From a virus, in IMG/VR virus record IMGVR_UViG_3300008116_000027, positions 1 through 64,000 of that record: a DNA stretch of 64,000 nt, one strand, 5' to 3'. Numbering within the stretch: position 1 is the stretch's first letter; each line of letters opens with the position of its first letter. The notes beneath the pieces are model-generated. The model searched no databases. It was given only the letters and a program-made list of their open reading frames with translations, and had not been told where the DNA came from. Shown piece by piece: positions 1 through 12,137 of the stretch. The position numbers and the translations under genes are program-made.

Positions 1-272
1 ATTTTGCCCCTATATTTATATATAAAAATAGGACATATATATCCAAGATGTACATATAGTACAAATCGGACATTATGTCCTAATATGATTATACTGTTAC
101 TTATAGGTTATAGTTACTGGACCACATAGTTCATTATATCTATCTATCTCTGCAGTCTTCCGTGCCTTTTCCGCCTTCTTCCATTTTCTAAAAGAAGCAA
201 GGGCGTGATTCTTATCCCGCCCATTGCCCTTCCATTTACGGGGTTTGCGTTGGCTAGATCCAGCAGCTTTGC

Positions 273-548
273 TCATGCCTGGATACCCACCTCATGAGCC
301 TCTATTACTTCAGCAAGATGTGAGGCAAGCATAATAGCCTCAGAGGTAAAACCTTCTTCCCAATACGCCTCAAACCTAGAAGCCTGTTCTTTAATGATTT
401 CGGTCATTAACTCCATTAGTCTATCTTGGGTATATAAAGGAAATCTATTTACAATTACACTAGCACATATAGAAGGATTAAACCAATGGTTATCCAATAC
501 TGTTGCTAATTGTTCTGCGATTTTATCTTCATCTGTTTTCTTTGCCAT
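273..548 (-). CDS. hypothetical protein (early region)
   Basis: 91-aa ORF preceded by AGAAAGGCGG and TGGTATAAT; same strand as the whole block. Confidence 0.75.
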   Translation of the reverse strand: MAKKTDEDKIAEQLATVLDNHWFNPSICASVIVNRFPLYTQDRLMELMTEIIKEQASRFEAYWEEGFTSEAIMLASHLAEVIEAHEVGIQA

Positions 549-632
549 ATCCGCCTTTCTAAAAGATTATACCAAAAAGGTTGGGGAAGGTCAATGTTTG
601 GGGGCCACTGACCCTCCCCAATGTTAGATAGT

Positions 633-779
633 TTACTTAGACTTGGTAGGAAGCTCTTTTGTAAACTGTACGCCATTCTTAACAGCCTCTGATAGAGCCT
701 GCTTAGCAGCACCTGAGAAGCGACCACGCTTGCCCACGGTAATGCCCTTGCTTACTAGATATTCACGTTTTGTTGTCAT
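633..779 (-). CDS. 48-aa Lsr2-like DNA-binding-domain peptide
   Basis: Translated by hand: MTTKREYLVSKGITVGKRGRFSGAAKQAL...; resembles the Lsr2 C-terminal motif (REW-x3-G-x2-V-x2-RGR); ATGA overlap with upstream gene. Confidence 0.6.
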   Translation of the reverse strand: MTTKREYLVSKGITVGKRGRFSGAAKQALSEAVKNGVQFTKELPTKSK

Positions 780-1222
780 TGTGTTGACCCTTCTAATACG
801 ACAGGCTCCGCCTTGAAACCTGATTCTTGCGTTCCATATTCAGTTGTGTTATCTGACTCCTCGTCAGAATCTTCGTCTTCGTCATCAAGCCAGTTGTCAT
901 CATCTAGGGCGACCAAGAAATTATTATTGATCATCCAATCCGTGACAGCCTCGTCCATGTACTCAGCGCCATACTCTAATGTAAATTGATCAGGCGGGTT
1001 ACCCCAGAGTTCCTCCCAGATATTATCTAGAGTTACTCCTTCTTTAACAACATATTCATTCCAATCAGATACAGTCTCATATGATTGATACTTATCTCGA
1101 ATAATATCCCAAGACCATAGCCATACTAATGGAATTCCTACATCCATATTATTTAAAGTATTTACTATTTGGTCCAATTGCATTTTGATCTTGACACCAC
1201 GATCATAGTCTGCATTATCCAC
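776..1222 (-). CDS. acidic hypothetical protein
   Basis: 148-aa ORF, GTG start after CAACGAAAGGG. Confidence 0.75.
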   Translation of the reverse strand: MDNADYDRGVKIKMQLDQIVNTLNNMDVGIPLVWLWSWDIIRDKYQSYETVSDWNEYVVKEGVTLDNIWEELWGNPPDQFTLEYGAEYMDEAVTDWMINNNFLVALDDDNWLDDEDEDSDEESDNTTEYGTQESGFKAEPVVLEGSTQ

Positions 1223-1469
1223 GTTGTTTAGCCCTTTCGTTGATAGCGAATGATAAATTATACGTCATAACATAGATATCTGTCAAGGCATCCAGCCTAC
1301 CTGATAAATATTGATATTCAGGATTATCTTGTAGCTCAGAAATGTCTAATAGTCTAGTTTCACATTCATACATTAAGTTTTTTAATTCTCCATGCATGAC
1401 ATCAGTTCCCGTTTCTCCCATATCTATCAGCTTTTGAAGATGTGGGCTTAATTCATCAGACATTATCAT
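1215..1469 (-). CDS. hypothetical protein
   Basis: ORF with GGAGGT RBS, overlapping the next gene. Confidence 0.7.
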   Translation of the reverse strand: MIMSDELSPHLQKLIDMGETGTDVMHGELKNLMYECETRLLDISELQDNPEYQYLSGRLDALTDIYVMTYNLSFAINERAKQRG

Positions 1470-1600
1470 TTGCTACCTCCAGTAGATGTCTAACTGCATG
1501 TATTTGTCCTTCTAAAAATATAAGATCTTCAGGGCTTTTATCTAATGGGTCTCTATCTTGATTAAGACTAATTAGATGTATATTCATATATTCAATCATC

Positions 1601-1798
1601 TTAGTATGATTCACCTTGTACATATCCTTCCGCTAATAGACCTTCAAAGAAATCCCATATGGTTAATAGACCTTGCTTAACGCTAGGGTCGGTGGCGGAA
1701 TCAATAGCAACAGTTAATGATGTACCAAACTCCTGTATATCCTTATATGTATATCCTAACATTCTATGTAGTATTCCTCTCCTGGTTCGACTTGCCAA
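1601..1798 (-). CDS. hypothetical protein (true start probably the internal MLGY)
   Basis: ORF track; AGGAGAGGA RBS precedes the internal ATG. Confidence 0.6.
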   Translation of the reverse strand: MASRTRRGILHRMLGYTYKDIQEFGTSLTVAIDSATDPSVKQGLLTIWDFFEGLLAEGYVQGESY

Positions 1799-1995
1799 TA
1801 TTCATTAAATTGTTTTTTGACGGATTCATCAGAGCACATGCTAGCCATTTCATAGTCAGCAATAAACATACCTTCGTCTAAATGACCTGATATCCAACTA
1901 TCAAATAAGTCCTCAGATATCTCTTGAACAATAGCATTTGCAATATGTTCAGGCATATCATCAAACATACTTGGTTTATCATTTGAATAACCCAT
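1756..1995 (-). CDS. acidic hypothetical protein
   Basis: ORF with CGAAAGGA RBS and promoter at 2020-2041. Confidence 0.8.
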   Translation of the reverse strand: MGYSNDKPSMFDDMPEHIANAIVQEISEDLFDSWISGHLDEGMFIADYEMASMCSDESVKKQFNEYWQVEPGEEYYIEC

Positions 1996-2152
1996 ATATA
2001 TCCTTTCGCTAGGACCTTAATTATATAACAGACCACTGACATTGTATATAGAATATAGGTGTGTTTTACACCACATGTCCAAAGCTTGAGATTTCAGGGA
2101 AATATATTTGACTTCCGTAAAGACAATATGCTACCCTCTCCTCTTTGAGGGC

Positions 2153-2277
2153 AAAAGAAATCCCCCCTGGGACAAGGGGGGATTAAGATGAATGGCTGCT
2201 AGGACCTCAACGAAAGGAAAAACCTGCCTTACTTAGCATCCAATAGATGCACCATTCTATGAATAGGCACAGGGCCT
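2153..2277 (-). ncRNA. candidate ~125-nt sRNA carrying an anti-RBS sequence UUUCCUUUCGUUG
   Basis: TGA-TATAAT at 2284-2292 (-), no ORF, ends in hairpin AATCCCCCC/GGGGGGATT plus T-tract; internal stems GAATGG/CCATTC and GCATC/GATGC. Confidence 0.6.
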
Positions 2278-2294
2278 AATCAAATTATATCACA

Positions 2295-2699
2295 CTAGAC
2301 TAGCAGTCTTTCTAGCGCATACTTCTCACAGAACGCTGTTAGGTCCATGGTAAAGATTGCTTCATTCTTCATACCTAAAACTTTATTCTCTAAGTTACGG
2401 TGATCGTCTTGCTCGTGTAATGAGAAGGTCTGATCTTTCCAGTTGATAACAGCAATCTTGTGCTCATTATCTCCAATTGAATTTACTTGAAGACCCCAGC
2501 CTGTTTCCATGTTCCATTGGTCTCCGATTAATTGGCTAATAGCAATACGTGTTGCATATGATTCATCTGTCCAACGAGGACGTGCTGCGATCACAGCATC
2601 CGCCAATTTGCCTAGCATGTTGTAGCCAGCCCAGTGCCCATATAGACATATGGTGTCACCCGCTCCGTCTACGAATACGTAATTTGCTCTGTCTCCCAT
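2295..2699 (-). CDS. conserved phage hypothetical protein (MGDRAN...YGHWAG type)
   Basis: 134-aa ORF, AAGGCGG RBS. Confidence 0.8.
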   Translation of the reverse strand: MGDRANYVFVDGAGDTICLYGHWAGYNMLGKLADAVIAARPRWTDESYATRIAISQLIGDQWNMETGWGLQVNSIGDNEHKIAVINWKDQTFSLHEQDDHRNLENKVLGMKNEAIFTMDLTAFCEKYALERLLV

Positions 2700-2700
2700 T

Positions 2701-2889
2701 TTAAACCGCCTTTTCTAGTTGAGGTATTTCTTCCGTTTTATTTAATTCTATCATTTCAAAGGCCCATTTGTCTAGGGTCTCTGAATTTTTATTTTTATGA
2801 TGTGAACAGAAAGCTAATTCACCGCCTGTACTACGAGCCAGGTATTTGGCTTGAGCTGGGCAGCTGTCGCATTTAATCCATTCGCTCAT
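2701..2889 (-). CDS. small Zn-finger protein (CxxC...FCxHH)
   Basis: CDSC and FCSHH motifs. Confidence 0.75.
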   Translation of the reverse strand: MSEWIKCDSCPAQAKYLARSTGGELAFCSHHKNKNSETLDKWAFEMIELNKTEEIPQLEKAV

Positions 2890-3032
2890 AGTTTATTGCT
2901 TTCTATCATGTCTGATAATCTATCTAATAACCATGAGTCAATATCTGCAATATCAATTTCCCGTAACTTATCAATCATTTCTTCACGGGCAAACTTATAT
3001 CCGTCTTGAAACCCATCTTTATAATCAGACAT
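2886..3032 (-). CDS. 48-aa hypothetical protein
   Basis: Translated by hand (MSDYKDGFQDGYKFAREEM...); fills the gap and overlaps both neighbours. Confidence 0.65.
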   Translation of the reverse strand: MSDYKDGFQDGYKFAREEMIDKLREIDIADIDSWLLDRLSDMIESNKL

Positions 3033-3264
3033 TTATCATCCTATCATATCTGTACGCTAATTCGTTATCAGCATACTTGCTCTCGATTAAAACCTTAAGT
3101 TGGTGCTTAGATATTAATCTAGTTACCTTCTCAATATTACCAGTTCCAATCTCGAAAGTCAATGCATCAAGATTATATGAATCAGGATCCAGGCCTCCAA
3201 CCTCAGCGTCCCATATAGAAAAATGGAACGCCTTAATTGAATCTGCTTTTAATTTATAATACAT
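3025..3264 (-). CDS. hypothetical protein
   Basis: ORF track 3025-3300; ATG at 3264 coupled to the upstream stop (TAATG). Confidence 0.65.
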   Translation of the reverse strand: MYYKLKADSIKAFHFSIWDAEVGGLDPDSYNLDALTFEIGTGNIEKVTRLISKHQLKVLIESKYADNELAYRYDRMINV

Positions 3265-3713
3265 TAGTTCCAATCCACATCTGTGTCTTCGATGCTCCAT
3301 GTGTTAACATCAACATTATGACTATTTGAATCTAATGATAATTCATCACCTAGATAATAATGTGCGTCAAAGTTTTCAACTTCATTAAATGGAACATCAA
3401 CCGTTACTTCAAATGATATAGTTCCAGTTACAGTTACTTGCTTAGATGGGTTAAGATCAAAGTATTCGCAGAGTTCACGAATTACATCATCTTTGTCATA
3501 GTTTGGATTAGACCATTCTATGATTTGATCATTTAGCCCGTCAATCTTATTTCGCAGGCTAAAGTACTCGGCAGTGCGTTGTCTAGCGTTTTCGAGCACC
3601 CATTCTAAATCTGTTACTTTTGTAATTGGAAATGTAACAGTTTCTCCGTCAATCACCTTGTACTGTACAAGGGCATTAGGATTATATGTGTCAGGTATTA
3701 CAGTTGATTCCAT
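3264..3713 (-). CDS. hypothetical protein
   Basis: 149-aa ORF, CAACGAAAGGAAA RBS, own promoter at 3744-3765. Confidence 0.85.
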   Translation of the reverse strand: MESTVIPDTYNPNALVQYKVIDGETVTFPITKVTDLEWVLENARQRTAEYFSLRNKIDGLNDQIIEWSNPNYDKDDVIRELCEYFDLNPSKQVTVTGTISFEVTVDVPFNEVENFDAHYYLGDELSLDSNSHNVDVNTWSIEDTDVDWN

Positions 3714-3714
3714 G

Positions 3715-4473
3715 TTAGTTTCCTTTCGTTGTGGTAGTGGCTAATTGTACACCATGGGTCTGACATTCTTTCATTGCTTCCTCATCTTGCCAAGAACCTT
3801 GATTGCATTCTGAGCAGAATTCACCGCAGCCGTCCTCACAATAATCTAATGTATTAAAGGATTGGCAAGCATAGCAGCGATTCTCGTATTCTAGTTTAGT
3901 TGTAACCTCACCATTTACAATCTCATATTCTCCTCCCCAGCCTTGCTCCTCTTCAAATTCTAAAGTAAGGACACAGTTCGGAATTAAGTTAGATAGTTTA
4001 ACTAATACAGAGACGGCAGGCGACCATGCAGTATTATATTTATATACTAGCCATTGGTCCTCACCATCAGACATATGCTCCAGTAGTTCAGTATCAGGAT
4101 ACTCGTCACCATCTGATACAGCAACATCCCATTTAGTTCCCCAATTAGAAGTATTCCAGTTATACCAGTCTTTCTGAGTCTTAGCATGCTCTACTTCTTT
4201 AGCAAACCAATCAGGGGAATTTGTATCTAGTCCTAGTCGTGCAGGTTGTTGAACATATTCTTCCATTGTAATACCATCCTCTAATGGAGAATGTATATTC
4301 CAAAAAGCAAAGACAGGATTAGAATAAGTAGACTTAGTTACTTCCATCTGCATAGTCTTCATGTTCCAACTATCATGCATTACTTCAAATGGCTGATTAA
4401 GTTTATCTTTAATTGAATCTACTTGGTCTTTAGGACCTTGTATAGTTAATGTGTTATACACCCAGTTAGGCAT
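3715..4473 (-). CDS. DUF1281/YubB ferredoxin-like domain protein with C-terminal Cys cluster
   Basis: MPNW start, DWYNWN..NWGTKWD and TAWSP motifs; start moved to the ATG after CAACGAAAGGA. Confidence 0.75.
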   Translation of the reverse strand: MPNWVYNTLTIQGPKDQVDSIKDKLNQPFEVMHDSWNMKTMQMEVTKSTYSNPVFAFWNIHSPLEDGITMEEYVQQPARLGLDTNSPDWFAKEVEHAKTQKDWYNWNTSNWGTKWDVAVSDGDEYPDTELLEHMSDGEDQWLVYKYNTAWSPAVSVLVKLSNLIPNCVLTLEFEEEQGWGGEYEIVNGEVTTKLEYENRCYACQSFNTLDYCEDGCGEFCSECNQGSWQDEEAMKECQTHGVQLATTTTKGN

Positions 4474-4595
4474 TTCATTCCTTTCGTTGAATGTCGCAAT
4501 TGTAGCAGAGTCAACTGACATTATCAAGGATTTTGGGGCTTTTTATATGTATGCCGTAAAAGAGCTATGTTGCCTTTAGCTCTGGGGGCAGCTTG

Positions 4596-4669
4596 CGATC
4601 CCAACGGGACTTGAACCCGTAGCCTCTACCGTGACAGGGTAACGATCTAACCAATTGATCTATGGGACC
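4596..4669 (-). tRNA. tRNA-Asp(GTC)
   Basis: Cloverleaf: acceptor GGTCCCA/TGGGATC, anticodon loop CTGTCAC, GTTCAAGTC T-loop; no encoded CCA. Confidence 0.93.
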
Positions 4670-4673
4670 AGAA

Positions 4674-4697
4674 TATAGGGCCCTTGCGGGCCCCATA
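4674..4697. terminator. hairpin after the DUF932 gene
   Basis: ATATAGGGCCC-TTGC-GGGCCCCATAT inverted repeat. Confidence 0.55.
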
Positions 4698-4701
4698 TTA
4701 T

Positions 4702-5718
4702 TTATACTAGTTGTAATTTATTTTGTACAACTTTTAACAAACGATTTTTTTCTGCGTTAATTGCAGGATCAAAACCGCTTGCAGATGCTAACATATTTTC
4801 AGTGTTAGTACCACGGGCATTGCGATGCCAATCTAAACGCTCAGTTAAAGCATTTAAAGCACCCCACGCATTACCAGCGATTGTGTGATTATATTCGCCA
4901 GTATAAATATCGTTAATTAAATTAACTTTATTTTCCCATTTCTTGATTGCACCCTTAACATCTTTATCAGGTTTTGGATAAGCAGCAAGAATGATTTCGT
5001 TAAATTGTTGAGCGGTAATTTCCGTCTCAATCATTAACTTAGCCATGATGTCGAATTTATCCATGTATGCATTGGCAAGACCTAAAGTCTCACGGGCAAC
5101 TTGAATGCGACCTTCCGCCGATTGTGTATGACGGATTTTGAAAGATTGCTTTACGCCATCTTTTTTCTTGATGCTACCCAATGCAAGATTGAGAGTATTA
5201 GCACACACAACACGAACGGGTGTTATGGATGCTTGAATTGCAATTGATCCATCATGCGATGTATTAATTAGCAAATATGTTTTAACCACATCTGCCACGC
5301 CGTTAGGATCGAGCACGGTCTCACGCTCTAAAGCAAGAGATCCAAATACAACACGTCCGCCACGGATTGAGCCAGCGGTCTCCCATCGGCCTCCACCATC
5401 TAGGATGTTATCACCAAATGCAAATAAATCTTCATTTTGCAATGGTACATAGCGCTCACCGACAATTCCTAAAACATCGGTTTGTGTTTTGTCCGTAGGA
5501 TTAGTACGCACAACATATTGATAGTTTTTATCGGATGTTAATTGAGATGGGATTTCTAAATCTTCTAATCTAACATTCCATCCGTTAAGATTTGCAGCAA
5601 CTAGCATTTCGCTAGTATTTTTTTCTTCTGTGAACACGGTACCTAAACCATGCCACGCAGGTTCACGGAATGATGCAAAACTTGCTACACCATTTTGTGA
5701 TTCTAGTTCATGAGCCAT
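4702..5718 (-). CDS. DUF932 family phage/plasmid protein (TIGR03299-like)
   Basis: MAHELE..AWHGLG, ETAGS..GGR, NTSHDGS, TPVRVVCANTL and RHT motifs. Confidence 0.9.
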   Translation of the reverse strand: MAHELESQNGVASFASFREPAWHGLGTVFTEEKNTSEMLVAANLNGWNVRLEDLEIPSQLTSDKNYQYVVRTNPTDKTQTDVLGIVGERYVPLQNEDLFAFGDNILDGGGRWETAGSIRGGRVVFGSLALERETVLDPNGVADVVKTYLLINTSHDGSIAIQASITPVRVVCANTLNLALGSIKKKDGVKQSFKIRHTQSAEGRIQVARETLGLANAYMDKFDIMAKLMIETEITAQQFNEIILAAYPKPDKDVKGAIKKWENKVNLINDIYTGEYNHTIAGNAWGALNALTERLDWHRNARGTNTENMLASASGFDPAINAEKNRLLKVVQNKLQLV

Positions 5719-5885
5719 TTTTATCCTTTCGTTTTGAGTTGCCTTATTCTAGCATACATGACTGACATCTGGCAATACTACTAAACATTCCAGGGGAAAA
5801 TTTGGACTTGACGTAAACAGAAAAATGCCCCCACAGCTTTGCGGGCAGGGAAATGGGCCAGGAGCAAGGACCTGGCCCAAGATTA

Positions 5886-6098
5886 TTAGATTAAAGAATG
5901 AATCTCTTCTGGAAAATAAGCAGCAAATATTTTTTTGTTATCTTTTGTATCAACTACATATGCTTTGACTGTTCCTTGAAAGCGTTTTATGTTTTGCTTA
6001 ACTGCTTTTGTAATTGCTTCACGATTTACATTTTCTTTAAAATAAAGAGTTAAATCGTGAGCTTTGTTTGCGTCGTAGATTTCTACACGATACCGCAT
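5886..6098 (-). CDS. hypothetical protein
   Basis: 70-aa ORF with AAAGGA RBS; followed by a GGGCCAGG/CCTGGCCC hairpin. Confidence 0.75.
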   Translation of the reverse strand: MRYRVEIYDANKAHDLTLYFKENVNREAITKAVKQNIKRFQGTVKAYVVDTKDNKKIFAAYFPEEIHSLI

Positions 6099-6167
6099 TT
6101 TATTCCTTTGTTAGTAGGGATAACTATTTTAACATAGGGGGCTAGATTTTGTCTAGCCCCCAGTTAA

Positions 6168-6590
6168 TTACAAGTATCTTGCGATAGCGTTGTATGTAGA
6201 AGTAGAAACTACTTCCTCATCGGTCATTTTAAGGATACGGATAGCGTTCTCTATCTCCTCTTTCATCTCACGATAACTATGAACATGGATTACCTCATAA
6301 TTACGCTCAGGCTCTTTTGGAAAGTCTTTCTCATCTATGATTAAATCAAAATCAACATTAAGAGTTGTGTTCCAAGAACGATAATTGGTGCGTAGGTTTT
6401 GTGCTTTGGCAATTTGTCCAACTGCCCATTTGCCAATATCCTTCTGCCACTTTTCGTATGCCTTCTTATATTTGGCTTCGTTCTCGTCTTGCTTTGTGTA
6501 GTCAGCCTCTATCTTTGCTAACTTTGTTTCTAGGGCTTTAATAACCTTAGCAGTTGCGATTTTTACCTGTATTGCTTTGCCTCTTGCCAT
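6168..6590 (-). CDS. hypothetical coiled-coil protein
   Basis: 140-aa ORF with AACGAAAGGA RBS and promoter. Confidence 0.85.
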   Translation of the reverse strand: MARGKAIQVKIATAKVIKALETKLAKIEADYTKQDENEAKYKKAYEKWQKDIGKWAVGQIAKAQNLRTNYRSWNTTLNVDFDLIIDEKDFPKEPERNYEVIHVHSYREMKEEIENAIRILKMTDEEVVSTSTYNAIARYL

Positions 6591-6657
6591 TGTATTCCTT
6601 TCGTTAGGTTGGTTGTATTGTAGCAGACCCTACCGACAATAGAGTCTGCTTATCTTA

Positions 6658-6801
6658 TTACTTAACTGATGCGCTAGTCCAGCGTTCCTTGCCATTTACA
6701 TCTAGCAAGATACGAGCAACACCTGAAGGGTGATTATCAATAGCCTTGATAATTCCCTGAATACCACTTTTAGTGGTTGTGTATAGTTGTCCGATTTCCA
6801 T
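6658..6801 (-). CDS. 47-aa hypothetical protein
   Basis: Translated by hand (MEIGQLYTTTKSGIQG...); own RBS and promoter at 6826-6847. Confidence 0.75.
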   Translation of the reverse strand: MEIGQLYTTTKSGIQGIIKAIDNHPSGVARILLDVNGKERWTSASVK

Positions 6802-6848
6802 TTGTTTCCTTTCGTTTAGGTTTGTATTATAGCACCCTCCACCGACAA

Positions 6849-7118
6849 TTAGTAGTCGGTTTCAGGTAGCCACGCTTCTAGGTGATGCGCTTCTATGATT
6901 GCTGAAGCAGGTGCTTGATCTCTGCCCTTCCATAGTACGCCTTCAGGTAATACGATCATCTTATCGTAGTCGTCCTCATAGTAAGCATCGATAGCATCGA
7001 TACATGGCTGTACCATTGATGCAGGTACGGGTGGATAATGATTACCTTGTAAGTGTATTAGTATTGCTTGATCTAAGTCAAAACTCTCAGCCAAGTCCAT
7101 TGCTGTATTTAGTCCCAT
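6849..7118 (-). CDS. hypothetical protein (HLQGNHYPPVP motif)
   Basis: 89-aa ORF coupled to the upstream stop. Confidence 0.8.
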   Translation of the reverse strand: MGLNTAMDLAESFDLDQAILIHLQGNHYPPVPASMVQPCIDAIDAYYEDDYDKMIVLPEGVLWKGRDQAPASAIIEAHHLEAWLPETDY

Positions 7119-7292
7119 TTATTCTAACTCCTCTAGTATAGTTTCGGATAGGTTTTCCATTTCGCTAATACTATCAACAAGGTCTGACATTTCTTTCTCT
7201 GTTAATAGTACTTTAGTAGTAAGGTCTGCTACCTTGCTATCATATATTGCTTTTTTTGTAGCCTCTGCTAATGATATTGCCGTTGCTAACAT
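7119..7292 (-). CDS. 57-aa hypothetical protein
   Basis: Translated by hand (MLATAISLAEATKKAIYD...); CAACGAAAGGAAA RBS and promoter at 7322-7343. Confidence 0.75.
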   Translation of the reverse strand: MLATAISLAEATKKAIYDSKVADLTTKVLLTEKEMSDLVDSISEMENLSETILEELE

Positions 7293-7346
7293 TTATTTCC
7301 TTTCGTTGTTGTAGTGGGTAGATTATACACCTACCCACCGACATTA

Positions 7347-7607
7347 TTAGGCTAAAACTACTAGAGCCTCAGAAGCACCAGCATTTACTCTATCTAACTC
7401 ATCCTGCAATTCCTCAACGCTTAGTTGAGTTGGGTCGCCAATAAGTTCTAGTGTCATGCGGATATTTTCAGCAGTAAACATTCCAGCAGGCAAGCGTTCT
7501 ACTTTAGGATAGAAAGAGCCTTGTGGGTCTAGCATAGAGTTAAACTTAACTCCATTAACTTCGAATGGGTAAGAGACCCAATTCGTTGTATCTAGCATTG
7601 TTTGCAT
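7347..7607 (-). CDS. hypothetical protein
   Basis: 86-aa ORF with RBS and promoter. Confidence 0.8.
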   Translation of the reverse strand: MQTMLDTTNWVSYPFEVNGVKFNSMLDPQGSFYPKVERLPAGMFTAENIRMTLELIGDPTQLSVEELQDELDRVNAGASEALVVLA

Positions 7608-7874
7608 GTATTTCCTTTCGTTTGATTAGTGGAATTATAGCAGGCCTAACTGACATTATCTAAAACACGCCACAAATTCCAGGGTGTTTTATATCACACT
7701 CTTAAAGACACGCCCGACCCCGCAGGTGTGTGGGCGCCTTTTATCCGCTAAGCCCGTTTTCATCTTTATCTGGTTTAGTATATGTGGCAACAAATAAAAA
7801 AATTATAAATGGAGCGATTATAAATAAACTTAATAAGGCGCCAATTATTTCACCTAACAAAAAATCCATGGGCC

Positions 7875-8594
7875 CTATTTCTTAGTAGCAGAAAATCTAA
7901 TATCTGCTTTACCATAAACACACAATCCGCAAGATACGCAAGCAGAACCGCTAGCAGAAATTAATGGAATGCTTTTATTGTTTTCAGGACACTTAGCGCC
8001 AGGCTTACCAATTAATTCTTTCATAGTATTTTCGGTAACGGCAAAAGTCTTCCCAAGATAAGCCAATCTAATTTTAGTACCAGTCTTACGCAGATCATGC
8101 GCTATATCTTTATTCTCATCATCCGTAGAATAATAAAGAGATAGATTAGCAATGTTATCTAGAATAAGCGCAGCAGACTTAACTCGTGTATAAACCCAGA
8201 ATTGAATATCAGCATTAGTTAAGATTACGTATTGCCATGCACGTGCATAGGTATCATTAAAGAAATCTCCATCCCAGTGGATACGGAATAATAATTTAGC
8301 ATTTTTCTTTTCACAATCTTTTCTAAAATCATTAATCATATTTTCTAATAGGTCTACCATAGTAGGCTCATCAGCGTCTTTTAATAAATTCCAATTGTGC
8401 ATGAGCACGTCTCTTACACCTTTATAAACTTTTTCTAATTTGCCAGCATAACACACGCTTTCGCATATGCTAGTAGCGCCAGGACATGAGAATGCTTTAC
8501 CAGCAGGCAACCCGAATGTATTAGCAATGGCAGGGGTCTTACCATTTTTAGAAACTAAATTAGTTACTTTTCTGTCATTAGATCTTTTTAACAT
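7875..8594 (-). CDS. GP88-like Cys-rich (putative Fe-S) protein
   Basis: FGLPAG...CPGA..IC...CYA, FRIHWDGDF, WVYTR and C-terminal CxxCxLC; leaderless ATG 7 nt after TATAAT. Confidence 0.7.
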   Translation of the reverse strand: MLKRSNDRKVTNLVSKNGKTPAIANTFGLPAGKAFSCPGATSICESVCYAGKLEKVYKGVRDVLMHNWNLLKDADEPTMVDLLENMINDFRKDCEKKNAKLLFRIHWDGDFFNDTYARAWQYVILTNADIQFWVYTRVKSAALILDNIANLSLYYSTDDENKDIAHDLRKTGTKIRLAYLGKTFAVTENTMKELIGKPGAKCPENNKSIPLISASGSACVSCGLCVYGKADIRFSATKK

Positions 8595-8623
8595 GGGGGT
8601 AATTATAGCAGGGGCAGGTGACA

Positions 8624-8779
8624 TTAGAGGTCACCCATCTCTGCATCTGCCATGCGTGTCATAGCCCAATCAGCTGCTAGATCACGATCATACACGGCCA
8701 TGCCTTCCGTAGTATAGCCACGGGCACAAATTGTGCAAATAGAGTGATTAGTACAGTAGCATGAATTGATATCGTTCAT
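8624..8779 (-). CDS. 51-aa Cys-rich hypothetical protein
   Basis: Start MNDINSCYC after AACGAAAGG and promoter at 8806-8827. Confidence 0.7.
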   Translation of the reverse strand: MNDINSCYCTNHSICTICARGYTTEGMAVYDRDLAADWAMTRMADAEMGDL

Positions 8780-8913
8780 TAGTTGACCTTTCGTTAAGTA
8801 ATGGAATACTAACAGATCACACTGACATTTACAAATCGACACGCCGCAGATTTCGGGGGATTTTTTTAATGTGGCGTAAATCACAAAATGCCCCCACAGG
8901 GTTTGTGGGCGCA

Positions 8914-8929
8914 TCGAACGTTTGTTCTA
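8914..8929. promoter_or_regulatory. LexA (SOS) box-like site
   Basis: TCGAAC-GTTT-GTTCTA versus the actinobacterial consensus TCGAAC-N4-GTTCGA; second copy TCGAAC-AAAA-GTTCGG at 11040-11055. Confidence 0.55.
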
Positions 8930-8933
8930 ATAA

Positions 8934-9062
8934 TTAATTAGAAGCTTTTTTATGTTTTATTTTTCTAGTATATTTTTTTTTATTGCGAACAGGTTGCGCC
9001 GCATTTGATCGGCGCAATTCCTGAATGCGTTTTACTTTATTTAGAAGAGAAGTTTGGAACAT
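8934..9062 (-). CDS. 42-aa highly basic peptide
   Basis: Translated by hand: MFQTSLLNKVKRIQELRRSNAAQPVRNKKKYTRKIKHKKASN. Confidence 0.6.
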   Translation of the reverse strand: MFQTSLLNKVKRIQELRRSNAAQPVRNKKKYTRKIKHKKASN

Positions 9063-9228
9063 TATAACCGCTTGCCTCATAGAATTTATTTACATTAAAA
9101 TTAGAATTCTCTTTGGCACACAACTCCGCAAAATCTAAAACCATTTTAGAAAAAATAGCGGGGTGAGTTTTGTTAGAGTTATATTTTAAAATTGTAGCAA
9201 TTTCTTTAAAATGTTTTTTTGTCATCAT
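9037..9228 (-). CDS. hypothetical protein (MTKKHF...NFNVNKF type)
   Basis: 63-aa ORF, ATGA overlap. Confidence 0.75.
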   Translation of the reverse strand: MMTKKHFKEIATILKYNSNKTHPAIFSKMVLDFAELCAKENSNFNVNKFYEASGYNVPNFSSK

Positions 9229-9425
9229 TTAGCAGACACCAAACCAATCTGATTAAAGTTTTTAGTATACATTTTGCCATTAGGCATTTCTAAATTATAG
9301 GTTGCGTATTCATTAGCAAAACCGTGATCTTTACATCTAGCAAAAGCCTCAAACGCTTCTAATGCGTCAGAGAATTGGTGTGTAAATTCTAGTTTGCCGT
9401 CATACCAAGTAAATAGTTTAAACAT
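9225..9425 (-). CDS. hypothetical protein
   Basis: ATG at 9425 coupled to the upstream stop. Confidence 0.7.
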   Translation of the reverse strand: MFKLFTWYDGKLEFTHQFSDALEAFEAFARCKDHGFANEYATYNLEMPNGKMYTKNFNQIGLVSAK

Positions 9426-9556
9426 TAAATCCCCCAAGTTTCTAAAGCGCAATCGCAACTTTTAACGTCAAATTCTTTTTCATCTCCATAGAATACAAAT
9501 CCTGCGCCACCGCATTCATCACACTCTACGCCAATTATTTCTGCGATATTTCCCAT
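9425..9556 (-). CDS. 43-aa Zn-finger-like peptide (CDECGG...CDC)
   Basis: Translated by hand; RBS and promoter at 9584-9605. Confidence 0.7.
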   Translation of the reverse strand: MGNIAEIIGVECDECGGAGFVFYGDEKEFDVKSCDCALETWGI

Positions 9557-9735
9557 TTTATTTCCTTCCGTTTATTTAGCAGTATTGTATCAGTTATCAC
9601 TGACAATTGGCAAAACTGGAGAGCCTTCTAACTCTAAGCCAATTTCTAAATTAAGTAATTCTGAAGGCGTGGCTTCGGATAAATCTACCCAGCCAGCACC
9701 TTCATCATTTAAGCGAAAAATTTCTACATATCCCA

Positions 9736-9930
9736 TTATTCACCAACCTTTACGCCAACAGTTCGCACCTTACGGGCTGAACCAACTTCCACTAAATAAC
9801 TTTCGATATTCATTCCGTAGAATGTAGCACGAGGATCTTTTTCGGCAGAAACAATTTCGCCTTCCAAAGTATTTGATCGATAGTGTTTACCCACTAACAG
9901 GTTTTCTATTGTGTAGATATTTGCAGACAT
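9736..9930 (-). CDS. hypothetical protein
   Basis: 64-aa ORF with promoter at 9962-9983; a 48-aa ORF (9590-9736) follows. Confidence 0.75.
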   Translation of the reverse strand: MSANIYTIENLLVGKHYRSNTLEGEIVSAEKDPRATFYGMNIESYLVEVGSARKVRTVGVKVGE

Positions 9931-10032
9931 TGCAACCTTCTTTCTTTTTGGTTATGCCGATATTATACTAGACCCCACCGACAATTTGCATATTACTTGT
10001 GAGTAATTCCATATTTTGAGACGCTCAACTCA

Positions 10033-10224
10033 TGTGATCATAATCACATGCGACACGCCAGACACGCCCGAAGTTATCCACGACACGCCCGAAGTTATCC
10101 ACAAATTTTCAGGGTTTTTCCACATCTGTGCGTAAACCTGTGGATAACCGCCCACAAAAGATTGGGGGCAGCTATCGCCTTTGTCAAGGCGACACGCCGT
10201 CTATTCTTTGTGAGTTTGCTCACA
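10033..10224. promoter_or_regulatory. cluster of CRP-type palindromes, DnaA boxes and GACAC motifs
   Basis: TGTGA-N6-TCACA at 10033-10048 and 10209-10224; DnaA-type boxes at 10074, 10095, 10116 and 10139; GACACGCC at 10052, 10061, 10082 and 10191; 21-bp tandem repeat at 10061-10102. Confidence 0.8.
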
Positions 10225-10824
10225 TACGCATTTAGTATATGCGCCTGCGTTTAACCTGCCACATTTAGGGCAGGTATAAAATCCGCTAGGGTTAGCCATT
10301 TATTTATCTCTCCTAATTAATTTAATCGAATAGATAAATGCGATAGTGCCTACTAATAGCCATGTCGGAATACTAATTTGTAATCCTATGCTATCAGCGT
10401 ATAAACCAAATGCGTTTAAGTCTAAGTATAATTCCATTTATTCTGCCTCCTCCCAATCTAGTGTTAATTCATTTTCGATTATCTCATCAAGGCTAATCAT
10501 GTCCTCATCAAATAGCGTTTCGCTATTGTGTTTATCTAGTTTTTCTAATTCGTCTAAGTGTGTATAAGCGTCTGCCACATCTAGTTGGATAGTGTCCCAT
10601 TTAGTCATCATTAGTTATTACCTCCATTAACAATAGCACCGACAATAGCAATTATAGTTATCGTGCCTAACACAATAGGCAAAACAATATGAGGATAATC
10701 CTCTACCCAATCAAAAAATAGCATATTAGTTATTCTCCTCATCAATTCCAAACATCTCAGCAAACACTTTGTTTGCTTGTTGTAAGGCTTCTATCGCCTC
10801 GTTTATCTTATCCATGTTATCCAT
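10201..10824 (-). other. run of five tightly packed micro-ORFs (32, 37, 57, 45 and 32 aa; two hydrophobic, one CxxC)
   Basis: Translated by hand: 10726-10824, 10611-10724, 10438-10611, 10300-10437, 10201-10299; abutting or overlapping stops and starts, purine-rich RBSs. Confidence 0.7.
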
Positions 10825-10900
10825 TTTCTTACCTTCTTTCGTTGTTGTTATGGTGAAACCTTAGCATACCTAACCGACAATCGGCAAGGCGACACACCCC

Positions 10901-11080
10901 TTAGAGGGTGTGAGATACCTCACATGCGGTATCGCATCTAGGCACATCTGCCATTATTAAGCGTAGCAGACCTACACGCTCAGACTTAGTAAGTCTAAGA
11001 CGGCTAACGGTATCAGGCTTGATACCTCCATGATTATATTCGAACAAAAGTTCGGTATAGATATCGTCTAAGTTATTCAT
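10901..11080 (-). CDS. 59-aa first gene of the leftward block
   Basis: Translated by hand (MNNLDDIYTELLFEYNHGG...); ACGAAAGGA RBS. Confidence 0.7.
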   Translation of the reverse strand: MNNLDDIYTELLFEYNHGGIKPDTVSRLRLTKSERVGLLRLIMADVPRCDTACEVSHTL

Positions 11081-11112
11081 TTATTTATCCTTTCGTAGAT
11101 AATTTTAGTTGA

Positions 11113-11164
11113 GAGCGGTTATTCGCTAGGCTCACCTTTCGGGTTATTTGCTAGGCTCACGCTC
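11113..11164 (-). repeat. twin 19-nt repeat enclosed by a stem, in a 5' UTR
   Basis: GGTTATTCGCTAGGCTCAC (11117-11135) and GGTTATTTGCTAGGCTCAC (11142-11160), flanked by GAGCG/CGCTC. Confidence 0.8.
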
Positions 11165-11423
11165 TAATTCTTTATTTTGTTATACTATAATCATATAAGG
11201 GGGCACTGACATTTTGCCACTCACAAATCGGACATGTCGGACATTTTAAAATAAATCTTTTCTAAATCGTGTGATATACCCCACATATGGTCGCTCTAAT
11301 AGGACAAATCGGACATTTTAAAACCATGGATCATACAAATAAAATCTCTATTAACATTTTATGAAATCTGATATTATAGTCAACTAGGATTATATGGATA
11401 TATATGGGGGGATTTAAGAAAGA

Positions 11424-12137
11424 TTACTTAACCCAGATGGGGGCGTTTATATTTTTATCTAAAGCTTCTTGCAACATTTTTTGATTAAATTCAGTTTCCT
11501 GATATTGCTCTAATGTAGGAACATTTTCTTCAGATGCTACAATAAAGTTTGTATGGGCATATCTAGGACCTTTTGTTACAGCTTTTACTCCATGTCTATA
11601 TTTTTTGCTTGCACTGTGGATAACAAGGTCGCCCTTCTCTGGTTTGTATTCTACCTCTTGTTCTGGATAAAATAGCTCCCCGCCTTCAAAATCATTTATG
11701 TATACTACAAATCCGTACTGCACTATATGACAAGTATTGTGCGGATCGTATAAGTTTCCTTTTTCAATAGCATCAAAGTATCCAATTAAACTTCCTTCGT
11801 CGTGATCATCTGGATGTCCTGGACTATCCCAATGAACCTCTAAAGATTGACCTTCTATCATTTTAGAAACTCCATTAGATGGAAGTGGCTTATACTCTGG
11901 TCCAAAAAATTCTTCTGTTTTTTTCCACAATTCGTCTAATAAAGCATCTCCTTGAAAAACTTGATTAGGTGCTTTAATTTCAGAGTCATGATCCCATTTA
12001 TCTTTATTTAACCAATAATCATCGTGAAACCCATTTACAATTTCTGTATATTTATCTGCTTCTTCATTTGAAATAAAATTTTTATATACATATATCTCAT
12101 TGGCTAATTTAATTAAATTATTGTTATTTTGAAACAT
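11424..12137 (-). CDS. 2OG-Fe(II) oxygenase (prolyl 4-hydroxylase-like)
   Basis: HWD...YINDFEGGELFY...GDLVIH...HGVKAV..GPRY. Confidence 0.88.
   Translation of the reverse strand: MFQNNNNLIKLANEIYVYKNFISNEEADKYTEIVNGFHDDYWLNKDKWDHDSEIKAPNQVFQGDALLDELWKKTEEFFGPEYKPLPSNGVSKMIEGQSLEVHWDSPGHPDDHDEGSLIGYFDAIEKGNLYDPHNTCHIVQYGFVVYINDFEGGELFYPEQEVEYKPEKGDLVIHSASKKYRHGVKAVTKGPRYAHTNFIVASEENVPTLEQYQETEFNQKMLQEALDKNINAPIWVK

Follow-up and report, generated by a model that had tools for sequence, protein, structure and literature searches.

The signals, fold and conservation of the minus strand around 2153-2292 indicate a small non-coding RNA gene of about 125 nt, transcribed leftward from its own promoter and closed by a strong intrinsic terminator. 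Its predicted product, here called R1 RNA, belongs to a real, conserved and structured RNA family that is absent from Rfam. According to the reading that appears somewhat the likelier, R1 RNA would be a trans-acting, c4-like, multi-target antisense repressor that lowers the translation of early leaders as a set; production of the RNA, its pairing and the repressive outcome are what we infer from signals, fold, conservation and complementarity. If this is correct, a single small RNA would shut down an entire temporal class of genes by way of the leader tag that they have in common, and a post-transcriptional early-to-late switch would operate in a large group of phages that are abundant in lakes and infect hosts without Hfq. 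The window, that is, the whole stretch of DNA analysed, comprises the first 64 kb of an IMG/VR virus record of 76.9 kb (about 71% complete), and its positions 1-12137 form an early block of small leftward genes. The portal protein of the phage shares 56-59% identity with its counterparts in Streptomyces phages of cluster BE, domains of the GP88 and DUF932 families are also encoded, and the DNA occurs in lake and freshwater metagenomes; the source phage is therefore an uncultured freshwater relative of large actinobacterial phages. In one run search, 20 runs contained the locus, all of them DNA runs from such metagenomes; none of the runs is recorded as RNA. Comparison of the region with phage records by megablast and blastn returned nothing beyond tRNA and one coding stretch.

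The signals that delimit the RNA gene are the following:

2284 to 2292, minus strand: extended -10 promoter (TG-n-TATAAT) of the RNA gene, read from the sequence, at the stop codon region of the upstream gene
near 2277, minus strand: predicted transcription start of the RNA gene
2265 to 2277, minus strand: predicted 5' hairpin of the transcript, with a 4-pair stem and a 5-nt loop
2153 to 2184, minus strand: intrinsic terminator of the RNA gene, a 10-pair hairpin with 6 GC pairs (2184-2159) followed by a T-run (U-run in the RNA)

The initial annotation had described here a minus-strand unit with a TGA-TATAAT promoter lacking TGTCRG, no ORF and a strong terminator, and each of these elements has been recovered. 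The extended -10 is present at 2292-2284, no TGTCRG-N10-TANNNT occurs at the RNA gene, the minus strand of 2100-2294 holds no ORF of at least 20 aa, and the hairpin 2184-2159 with its T-run is the top-ranked terminator-like site within 1-12000. With a promoter, a terminator and no ORF, the region is thus a separate transcription unit at the sequence level. A gene on the + strand behind the leader-like motif has been considered and rejected: reading of the sequence confirms that no ATG follows the motif, no start codon stands at the right distance, and the only ORFs there (27-29 aa) lie over the terminator.

Comparison with relatives defined a conserved core with the following parts:

2189 to 2258, minus strand: conserved core of 70 nt, a three-way junction (covariance model R1, 65.1 bits, E 4e-14)
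2257-2252 with 2195-2190, minus strand: stem P1
2251, minus strand: J1/2, a single U
2250-2236, minus strand: P2 hairpin
2235-2228, minus strand: J2/3 (UAAGUAAG)
2227-2198, minus strand: P3, with a bulged A
2197-2196, minus strand: J3/1 (AG)

The members are IMG/VR phage contigs, to which a pattern scan added more than 118 further contigs; 101 distinct sequences were aligned, and the model R1 was built on this alignment. Its junction order is P1, one U, P2, UAAnUAAR, P3 with a bulged base, AG and P1'. Pairing is retained in 94.3% of the cells in a MAFFT alignment of 45 distinct cores and in 93.1% for the 101 distinct sequences (MAFFT), compared with 22-48% in controls with slid partners. Compensatory changes, on both sides, are found at 11 of the 18 pairs, and the covariation score of the 101 sequences (0.435, versus 0.137 for shuffles) was exceeded by none of 500 shuffles; the score of the 45 cores was likewise out of reach of the shuffles. 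Covariation in homologues thus backs the two stems proposed earlier, GAAUGG/CCAUUC (P1) and AGG/CCU (inner P3); what that first reading of the sequence missed is the three-way-junction scaffold under the seed. The junction bases GGUG, UAAnUAA and GCAGCC are invariant in the 101 sequences, and the window copy shows the three-way junction with all three. No second R1 copy was found in the whole 76.9-kb record. When 1-12000 was searched with cmscan against Rfam 15 (including C4, RF01695) at E up to 1, only a tRNA at 4596-4669 and a chance plastid match were obtained; since Rfam lacks the RNA and its distinct sequences number well over a hundred, it is ready for description as a new RNA family.

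Several other identities and affiliations have been discarded. A tmRNA, suggested by gene order in Streptomyces phages, is not indicated, as ARAGORN finds none in the window, Rfam gives no tmRNA match and R1 has no match in the tmRNA region of the phage MindFlayer. A riboswitch or attenuator was rejected because the folds show no alternative pairing between core and terminator, and the next gene lies about 150 nt away with a separate promoter. A pseudoknot between J2/3 (UAAGUAAA) and UUUACUUA of the type B loop (loop types are described below) would be complementary in many type B members; it was not adopted because a G/A change in J2/3 is unmatched in the loop and several members would have mismatches at 3 of 8 positions. 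Matches on genome contigs of Niabella, Saprospiraceae, Lysobacterales, Fibrivirga and Oscillospiraceae are due to chance. True R1 members do occur on three 3-kb contigs (L185, L188 and L190) of metagenome-assembled genomes labelled Bacteroidia, Polynucleobacter and 'bacterium'; as these labels belong to unrelated taxa, the contigs are probably mis-binned phage DNA and not host genes.

The second line of evidence is the sequence carried at the tip of P3. The features needed here, including the upstream gene used as a query, are:

2208 to 2220, minus strand: seed UUUCCUUUCGUUG at the P3 tip, exact complement of leader 13-mers
2216-2209, minus strand: 8-mer CUUUCGUU within the seed, conserved family-wide
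2295 to 2699, minus strand: upstream gene encoding an acidic protein of 134 aa, syntenic partner of the RNA in types A-D, whose 3' end holds the RNA promoter region

The conservation of the loop is not circular, given that the loci were fetched through the neighbouring protein gene alone. With the upstream protein (P0001) as query, 63 related IMG/VR loci were obtained (42-99% identity), and CUUUCGUU, preceded by C or A, is kept 50-165 nt past the gene in 61 of the 61 with enough downstream sequence. Four tip designs share this same 8-mer:

type A (that of the window): a U-run, then CCUUUCGUUGAGG
type B: an open loop of about 22 nt
type C: ACUUUCGUUGGU in an inner helix of 3-6 pairs
type D: UCUUUCGUUGGAAA in an inner helix of 6 pairs

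Between types C and D, A:U in the inner helix is swapped for U:A. A hairpin similar to that at 2265-2277 is present in most type A relatives. In one contig (L059) the R1 model detects no scaffold, and a plain 9-pair hairpin at about 4420-4520 presents the same 12-nt stretch in its loop (UUUCCUUUCGUU), followed by a terminator. This contig is the strongest sign of selection acting on the loop letters and not on the fold alone; the loop appears to work without the junction, for it is kept where the scaffold has been dropped. The initial annotation had placed the seed in a probable loop closed by AGG/CCU. For the tip this agrees with the ensemble prediction, which leaves both UCGUU and the U-run ahead of the seed open (probabilities of 0.8-0.95 for being unpaired, with 0.92-0.95 for UCGUU), but the CCUU of the seed is predicted to lie in a weak 4-pair helix with GAGG. 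The exposed part is thus UCGUU, with CCUU weakly paired, and both are complementary to the ribosome-binding regions of leaders. The loop UUCG also fits YUNR, the U-turn motif of antisense loops that pair fast.

How far the RNA stands as a unit of its own differs among types. The element TGnTAnAAT precedes P1 by 25-38 nt in 17/23 contexts of type A, 27/31 of type B, 36/36 of type D and 6/33 of type C; taken over the 123 distinct contexts of types A-D, 86 retain this promoter element at the same spacing. Terminators, scored crudely as a stable hairpin with a T-run, were found 3' of the core in 13/23 contexts of type A, 30/31 of type B, 17/33 of type C and 35/36 of type D. For most type C relatives, the core begins right after the stop codon of the upstream gene and has no promoter of its own. 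The promoter counts therefore suggest that the RNA is an independent unit in the majority of lineages and forms the 3' part of the upstream mRNA in the remainder. The type C arrangement is what would be expected if the element acted in cis, either by stabilising or terminating the transcript of the upstream gene from its 3' untranslated region or, in the manner of put, by altering the behaviour of polymerase at the next terminator, the likeness to leaders being a by-product of shuffled promoter-leader modules. Such an account might also draw on the tight synteny with the upstream gene (a homologue of the 134-aa protein stands 8-89 nt upstream, on the same strand, at 118 of 121 loci found by the RNA pattern alone) and on a 10-nt same-sense repeat in common with the leader of gene 1995. 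The synteny is, however, partly explained by the position of the RNA promoter within the last codons of the gene, and it is broken in relatives of two further types (E and F, see below). Moreover, a dedicated promoter in 86 of 123 contexts is not expected of a cis element, a cis switch is dismissed because no part of the core is able to pair with the arm of the terminator, and chance shuffling of modules fails to explain an 8-mer kept across four loop architectures. Action in cis is therefore regarded as very unlikely.

The putative targets of the seed are found in the early block. Its gene strand holds fifteen promoter-like sites of the form TGTCRG-N10-TANNNT, a class already noted in the initial annotation, and at about 12 of these 15 the sequence (A)ACGAAAGG follows some 10-15 nt past the -10 and precedes a start codon, so placed that no more than about 10 nt separate the tag from the predicted leader 5' end. 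The 13-mer on the + strand at 2208-2220 is identical to the minus-strand leader 13-mers at 3719-3731 and 7296-7308, as had been proposed, and it is the sole copy on the + strand. With up to 2 mismatches allowed, 10 matches are found versus 2.35 +/- 1.57 expected, a number reached by none of 100 shuffles. Counted over the whole record, the 8-mer ACGAAAGG has 10 copies on the gene strand and one on the opposite strand, which bears out the earlier remark that a single copy stands in the opposite orientation. The main tagged leaders are:

3719 to 3731, minus strand: leader of gene 3713, predicted target; exact complement of 13 nt behind the early promoter at 3765, duplex -23.4 kcal/mol
7296 to 7308, minus strand: leader of gene 7292, predicted target; exact complement of 13 nt, behind the early promoter at 7343, net cofold gain -16.3 kcal/mol
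4477 to 4489, minus strand: leader of gene 4473, predicted target; 1 mismatch in 13, best net cofold gain (-21.0 kcal/mol)
6594 to 6606, minus strand: tagged leader of gene 6590
6805 to 6817, minus strand: tagged leader of gene 6801
7611 to 7623, minus strand: tagged leader of gene 7607, 1 mismatch
5722 to 5734, minus strand: tagged leader of gene 5718 (DUF932 protein), 2 mismatches

Besides the two exact 13-nt matches, about nine leaders of the window match the seed over 8-12 nt; the nine named in the initial annotation (1222, 1995, 4473, 5718, 6590, 6801, 7607, 8779 and 11080) all carry CGAAAGG-type tags. The tag is not a peculiarity of this phage. Behind early promoters AACGAAAG is the consensus in every subtype, with A before CGAAAG in 95-99% of cases at -2 and in 76-97% at -1, and 192 of the 341 GAAAGG-type sites in relatives (56%) are ACGAAAGG. 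The late genes of the window have AAGGAG sites. Duplex energies between the P3 interior and start regions range from -18 to -24 kcal/mol for tagged first genes, compared with a median of -11.4 and a best value of -17.5 kcal/mol for late genes. When the cost of unfolding is paid, the net cofold gain of tagged leaders is -8 to -21 kcal/mol versus -6.6 +/- 3.2 for shuffled leaders; six leaders reach -11.8 or lower, but the best shuffled control (-14.9) is surpassed by no more than two of them (-21.0 and -16.3). A 10-nt repeat on the same strand (AGGUCCUAGC, minus) has also been noticed at 2008-2017 and 2198-2207, that is, at the leader start of gene 1995 and on the 3' side of P3; the leader of gene 1995 has the best raw duplex energy of all (-23.7 kcal/mol). 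The leader of the upstream gene itself was considered as a special target and rejected: its CCUCAAC stretch recurs in phages with an RNA that has no GAGG, and is therefore attributed to coding conservation and not to pairing.

These data are consistent with the following mechanism. The RNA is predicted to fold into a 5' hairpin, the three-way junction and the terminator hairpin, and P3 would present a U-rich tip, with UCGUU or UUCGUU as its terminal loop, in which CUUUCGUU is placed, with 13 complementary nt in the phage of the window. The tip would pair with AACGAAAG(GAAA), the tag near the 5' end of the short early-promoter leaders, which overlaps the 5' half of the ribosome-binding site. 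Pairing probably begins at the open loop (YUNR-type UUCG), after which the weak inner helix would open, and the duplex would keep the 30S subunit from about ten of the first genes simultaneously. As a result, the early class would be turned down and the late AAGGAG genes left alone. Of the earlier proposal of a trans-acting repressor of the early regulon, the parts that have gained support are a real and conserved RNA gene with its own promoter and terminator, a loop that mirrors the early leader tag and duplexes that separate early from late genes. A point against the repressor reading is that one RNA would need to titrate about ten mRNA species. The proposed extension to host GAAAGGA-led mRNAs did not hold: CUUUCGUU extends upstream of the Shine-Dalgarno core, types C and D lack the C that would be needed, and the poor pairing of the late AAGGAG genes gives no support to a general attack on host ribosome-binding sites.

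The extent of the duplex varies with the type of tip. In types A and B it covers the whole ribosome-binding site. Types C and D have A or U where C is needed to pair with the core GG, and pairing ends before the GG; in subtype C an A stands opposite the first G of the Shine-Dalgarno core, and in the leaders of types C and D the positions after CGAAAG are more relaxed. This shorter pairing would suit an RNA that binds the same leaders and helps them, either by shielding the 5' end from 5'-end-dependent RNases or by delaying translation, and the position of the tag within about 10 nt of the predicted leader 5' end would suit it too. Nevertheless, the duplex still covers GAAAG, inside the 30S footprint, and extends over the entire site in types A and B, and known loop-to-RBS antisense RNAs repress (PMC12197685), so that a protective role seems quite unlikely. 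The loop of types A and B contains UCCUUUC, a string with the same letters as what we take to be the 3' tail of actinobacterial 16S rRNA. A mimic of that tail could serve as a decoy for a toxin or factor reading the anti-Shine-Dalgarno, or as a general Shine-Dalgarno sponge that includes host messages; nonetheless, the conserved part of the loop is CUUUCGUU and not CCUCC, types C and D lose the CC, and AAGGAG late genes pair poorly, all of which makes mimicry highly improbable.

For the preferred antisense reading, the co-variation of seed and target between lineages was also considered. At the core it is uninformative, because the 8-mer is invariant on both sides. For the flanks, counting of extra pairs beyond the core for all combinations of leader sets and RNA types gave no diagonal and no cognate preference: type D pairs best with all leader sets and type C worst. 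Only the core of about 8 nt thus seems constrained, as the flanks show no co-variation with leaders from their own phage, and what is seen between lineages is a coarse correlation only, in which types E and F have neither the loop nor the tag.

The comparison with known systems supports the principle and also marks differences. The c4 RNA of phages P1 and P7 has loops complementary to the ribosome-binding region that block the translation of phage mRNA (PMC12197685). Like c4, and P22 sar of the same kind, R1 RNA would be small, folded and phage-encoded, with a loop complementary to the RBS region. However, there is no homology with c4 in sequence or structure (no Rfam match, E up to 1), and the R1 scaffold is a three-way junction. 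Furthermore, c4 acts on one operon (icd-ant) in temperate-phage immunity, whereas R1 RNA would address about ten separate early leaders by means of the tag common to them, and no co-variation resembling heteroimmunity has been found for R1. Among host RNAs, the 6C sRNA (RF01066) of Actinobacteria, which lack Hfq, is multi-target and its pyrimidine-rich loops pair with purine-rich ribosome-binding sites. The same loop-to-RBS principle, in common with other loop-to-Shine-Dalgarno sRNAs of Hfq-less Gram-positives, is proposed for R1. In contrast, 6C is host-encoded, has C-rich loops and consists of two hairpins, and no Rfam 6C match exists in 1-12000; unlike 6C, the R1 loop reaches upstream of the core site and would be specific for the phage tag.

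A scan with the scaffold only has revealed relatives with unrelated tips (types E and F), which score 46-54 bits on R1. Their tips and positions are:

type E tip: CCUCGAAAA or CCUAGAAAU
type F tip: CUGGGGGUGUU
L195, 5407-5482: variant-tip member
L196, 2989-3065: variant-tip member
L197, 5065-5139: variant-tip member
L194, 2743-2823: variant-tip member
L198, 5675-5755: variant-tip member

Each of the five members has a -35/-10 promoter to itself, and P1 of type E is immediately followed by a U-run; the tip of type E looks like an AGAAA-type leader read in the sense direction. Phages with types E and F have AGAAAGG leaders or leaderless starts, and none of 12 sites is ACGAAAGG. A repeated complement to the type E and F tips was looked for and none was found. 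Scaffold and junction bases are thus conserved even where the loop differs, which is not explained by a simple antisense RNA; the scaffold must have a role of its own, as it is present in related phages with quite different loops.

The main alternative starts from this point: the scaffold would bind a protein or machine (ribosome, RNA polymerase, RNase or a defence protein), the P3 tip being a swappable specificity module that happens to target the leader tag in this lineage, or that is itself read by the partner. The invariance of GGUG, UAAnUAA and GCAGCC in the 101 sequences, the 46-54 bits retained by types E and F despite unrelated loops and the lack of a repeated complementary target for the loops of these types all speak for it. 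It is nevertheless judged rather unlikely in both versions, given that L059 retains the loop without the scaffold, that the loop 8-mer exactly mirrors the most frequent 8-mer of the leaders, a likeness not required of a protein site, and that no partner is known, the neighbouring protein being acidic and without a recognisable RNA-binding fold. This account and the antisense reading are not exclusive. A more speculative extension, itself unlikely, is that the junction is a reusable platform with a swappable guide tip, in which an unknown partner would read the junction and the tip would pick the RNAs. On an equally tentative footing, the tip would be set against the early-leader tag in types A-D and against something else in types E and F. 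If this were true, a new class of modular regulatory RNA would exist in actinobacterial phages, beyond another antisense RNA. The 8-13-nt tag, the compact scaffold, the naturally variant tips and the natural scaffold-less version would also provide a clean test system.

The relation between tag and RNA is also informed by a cultured lake phage, DSL-LC01 (an Actinomycetia phage, OQ999401.1). Its genome has 22 forward leader tags ACGAAAGG, all on the same strand, at 24-43 kb, and it encodes a homologue of the neighbouring protein (43% identity), yet it contains neither an R1 match nor a reverse copy of the tag. A single reverse 8-mer at 4279-4286 was rejected as a candidate: it lies between two hairpins, gives no model match and is within chance. 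As tags occur in this phage without the RNA, the tag does not need R1 RNA and is older or wider than it. DSL-LC01 may thus offer a laboratory system for the role of the tag itself.

Finally, the upstream protein and the sequence on the other side of the RNA gene deserve description. The acidity of the 134-aa protein was established by residue count. It has 55 invariant columns among 28 homologues and an AlphaFold pLDDT of 89, and its gene loses synteny with the RNA in types E and F. No Pfam family was found for it, and it falls in one PHROG of unknown function; searches with the predicted fold gave no Foldseek match at E up to 0.001, a best VIA Z of 3.6 and no PDB fold match, and in the Atlas only viral hypothetical clusters were returned. 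In the Streptomyces phage MindFlayer (L192, 2001-2695) a homologue (gene 184, 34.9% identity) has an annotated tmRNA gene within 20 nt downstream. The slot next to the homologue thus also holds an RNA gene in this soil relative, and no homology between the MindFlayer tmRNA and R1 RNA has been found. Directly past the RNA terminator, at 2092-2154 on the minus strand, a hairpin of the form GCCCnCA...GAGGGU is followed by TTTACG-N16-CCCTGAAA. This block stands upstream of the next early promoter and occupies the same place in most related loci, and six copies of it in the window were counted in the initial annotation.
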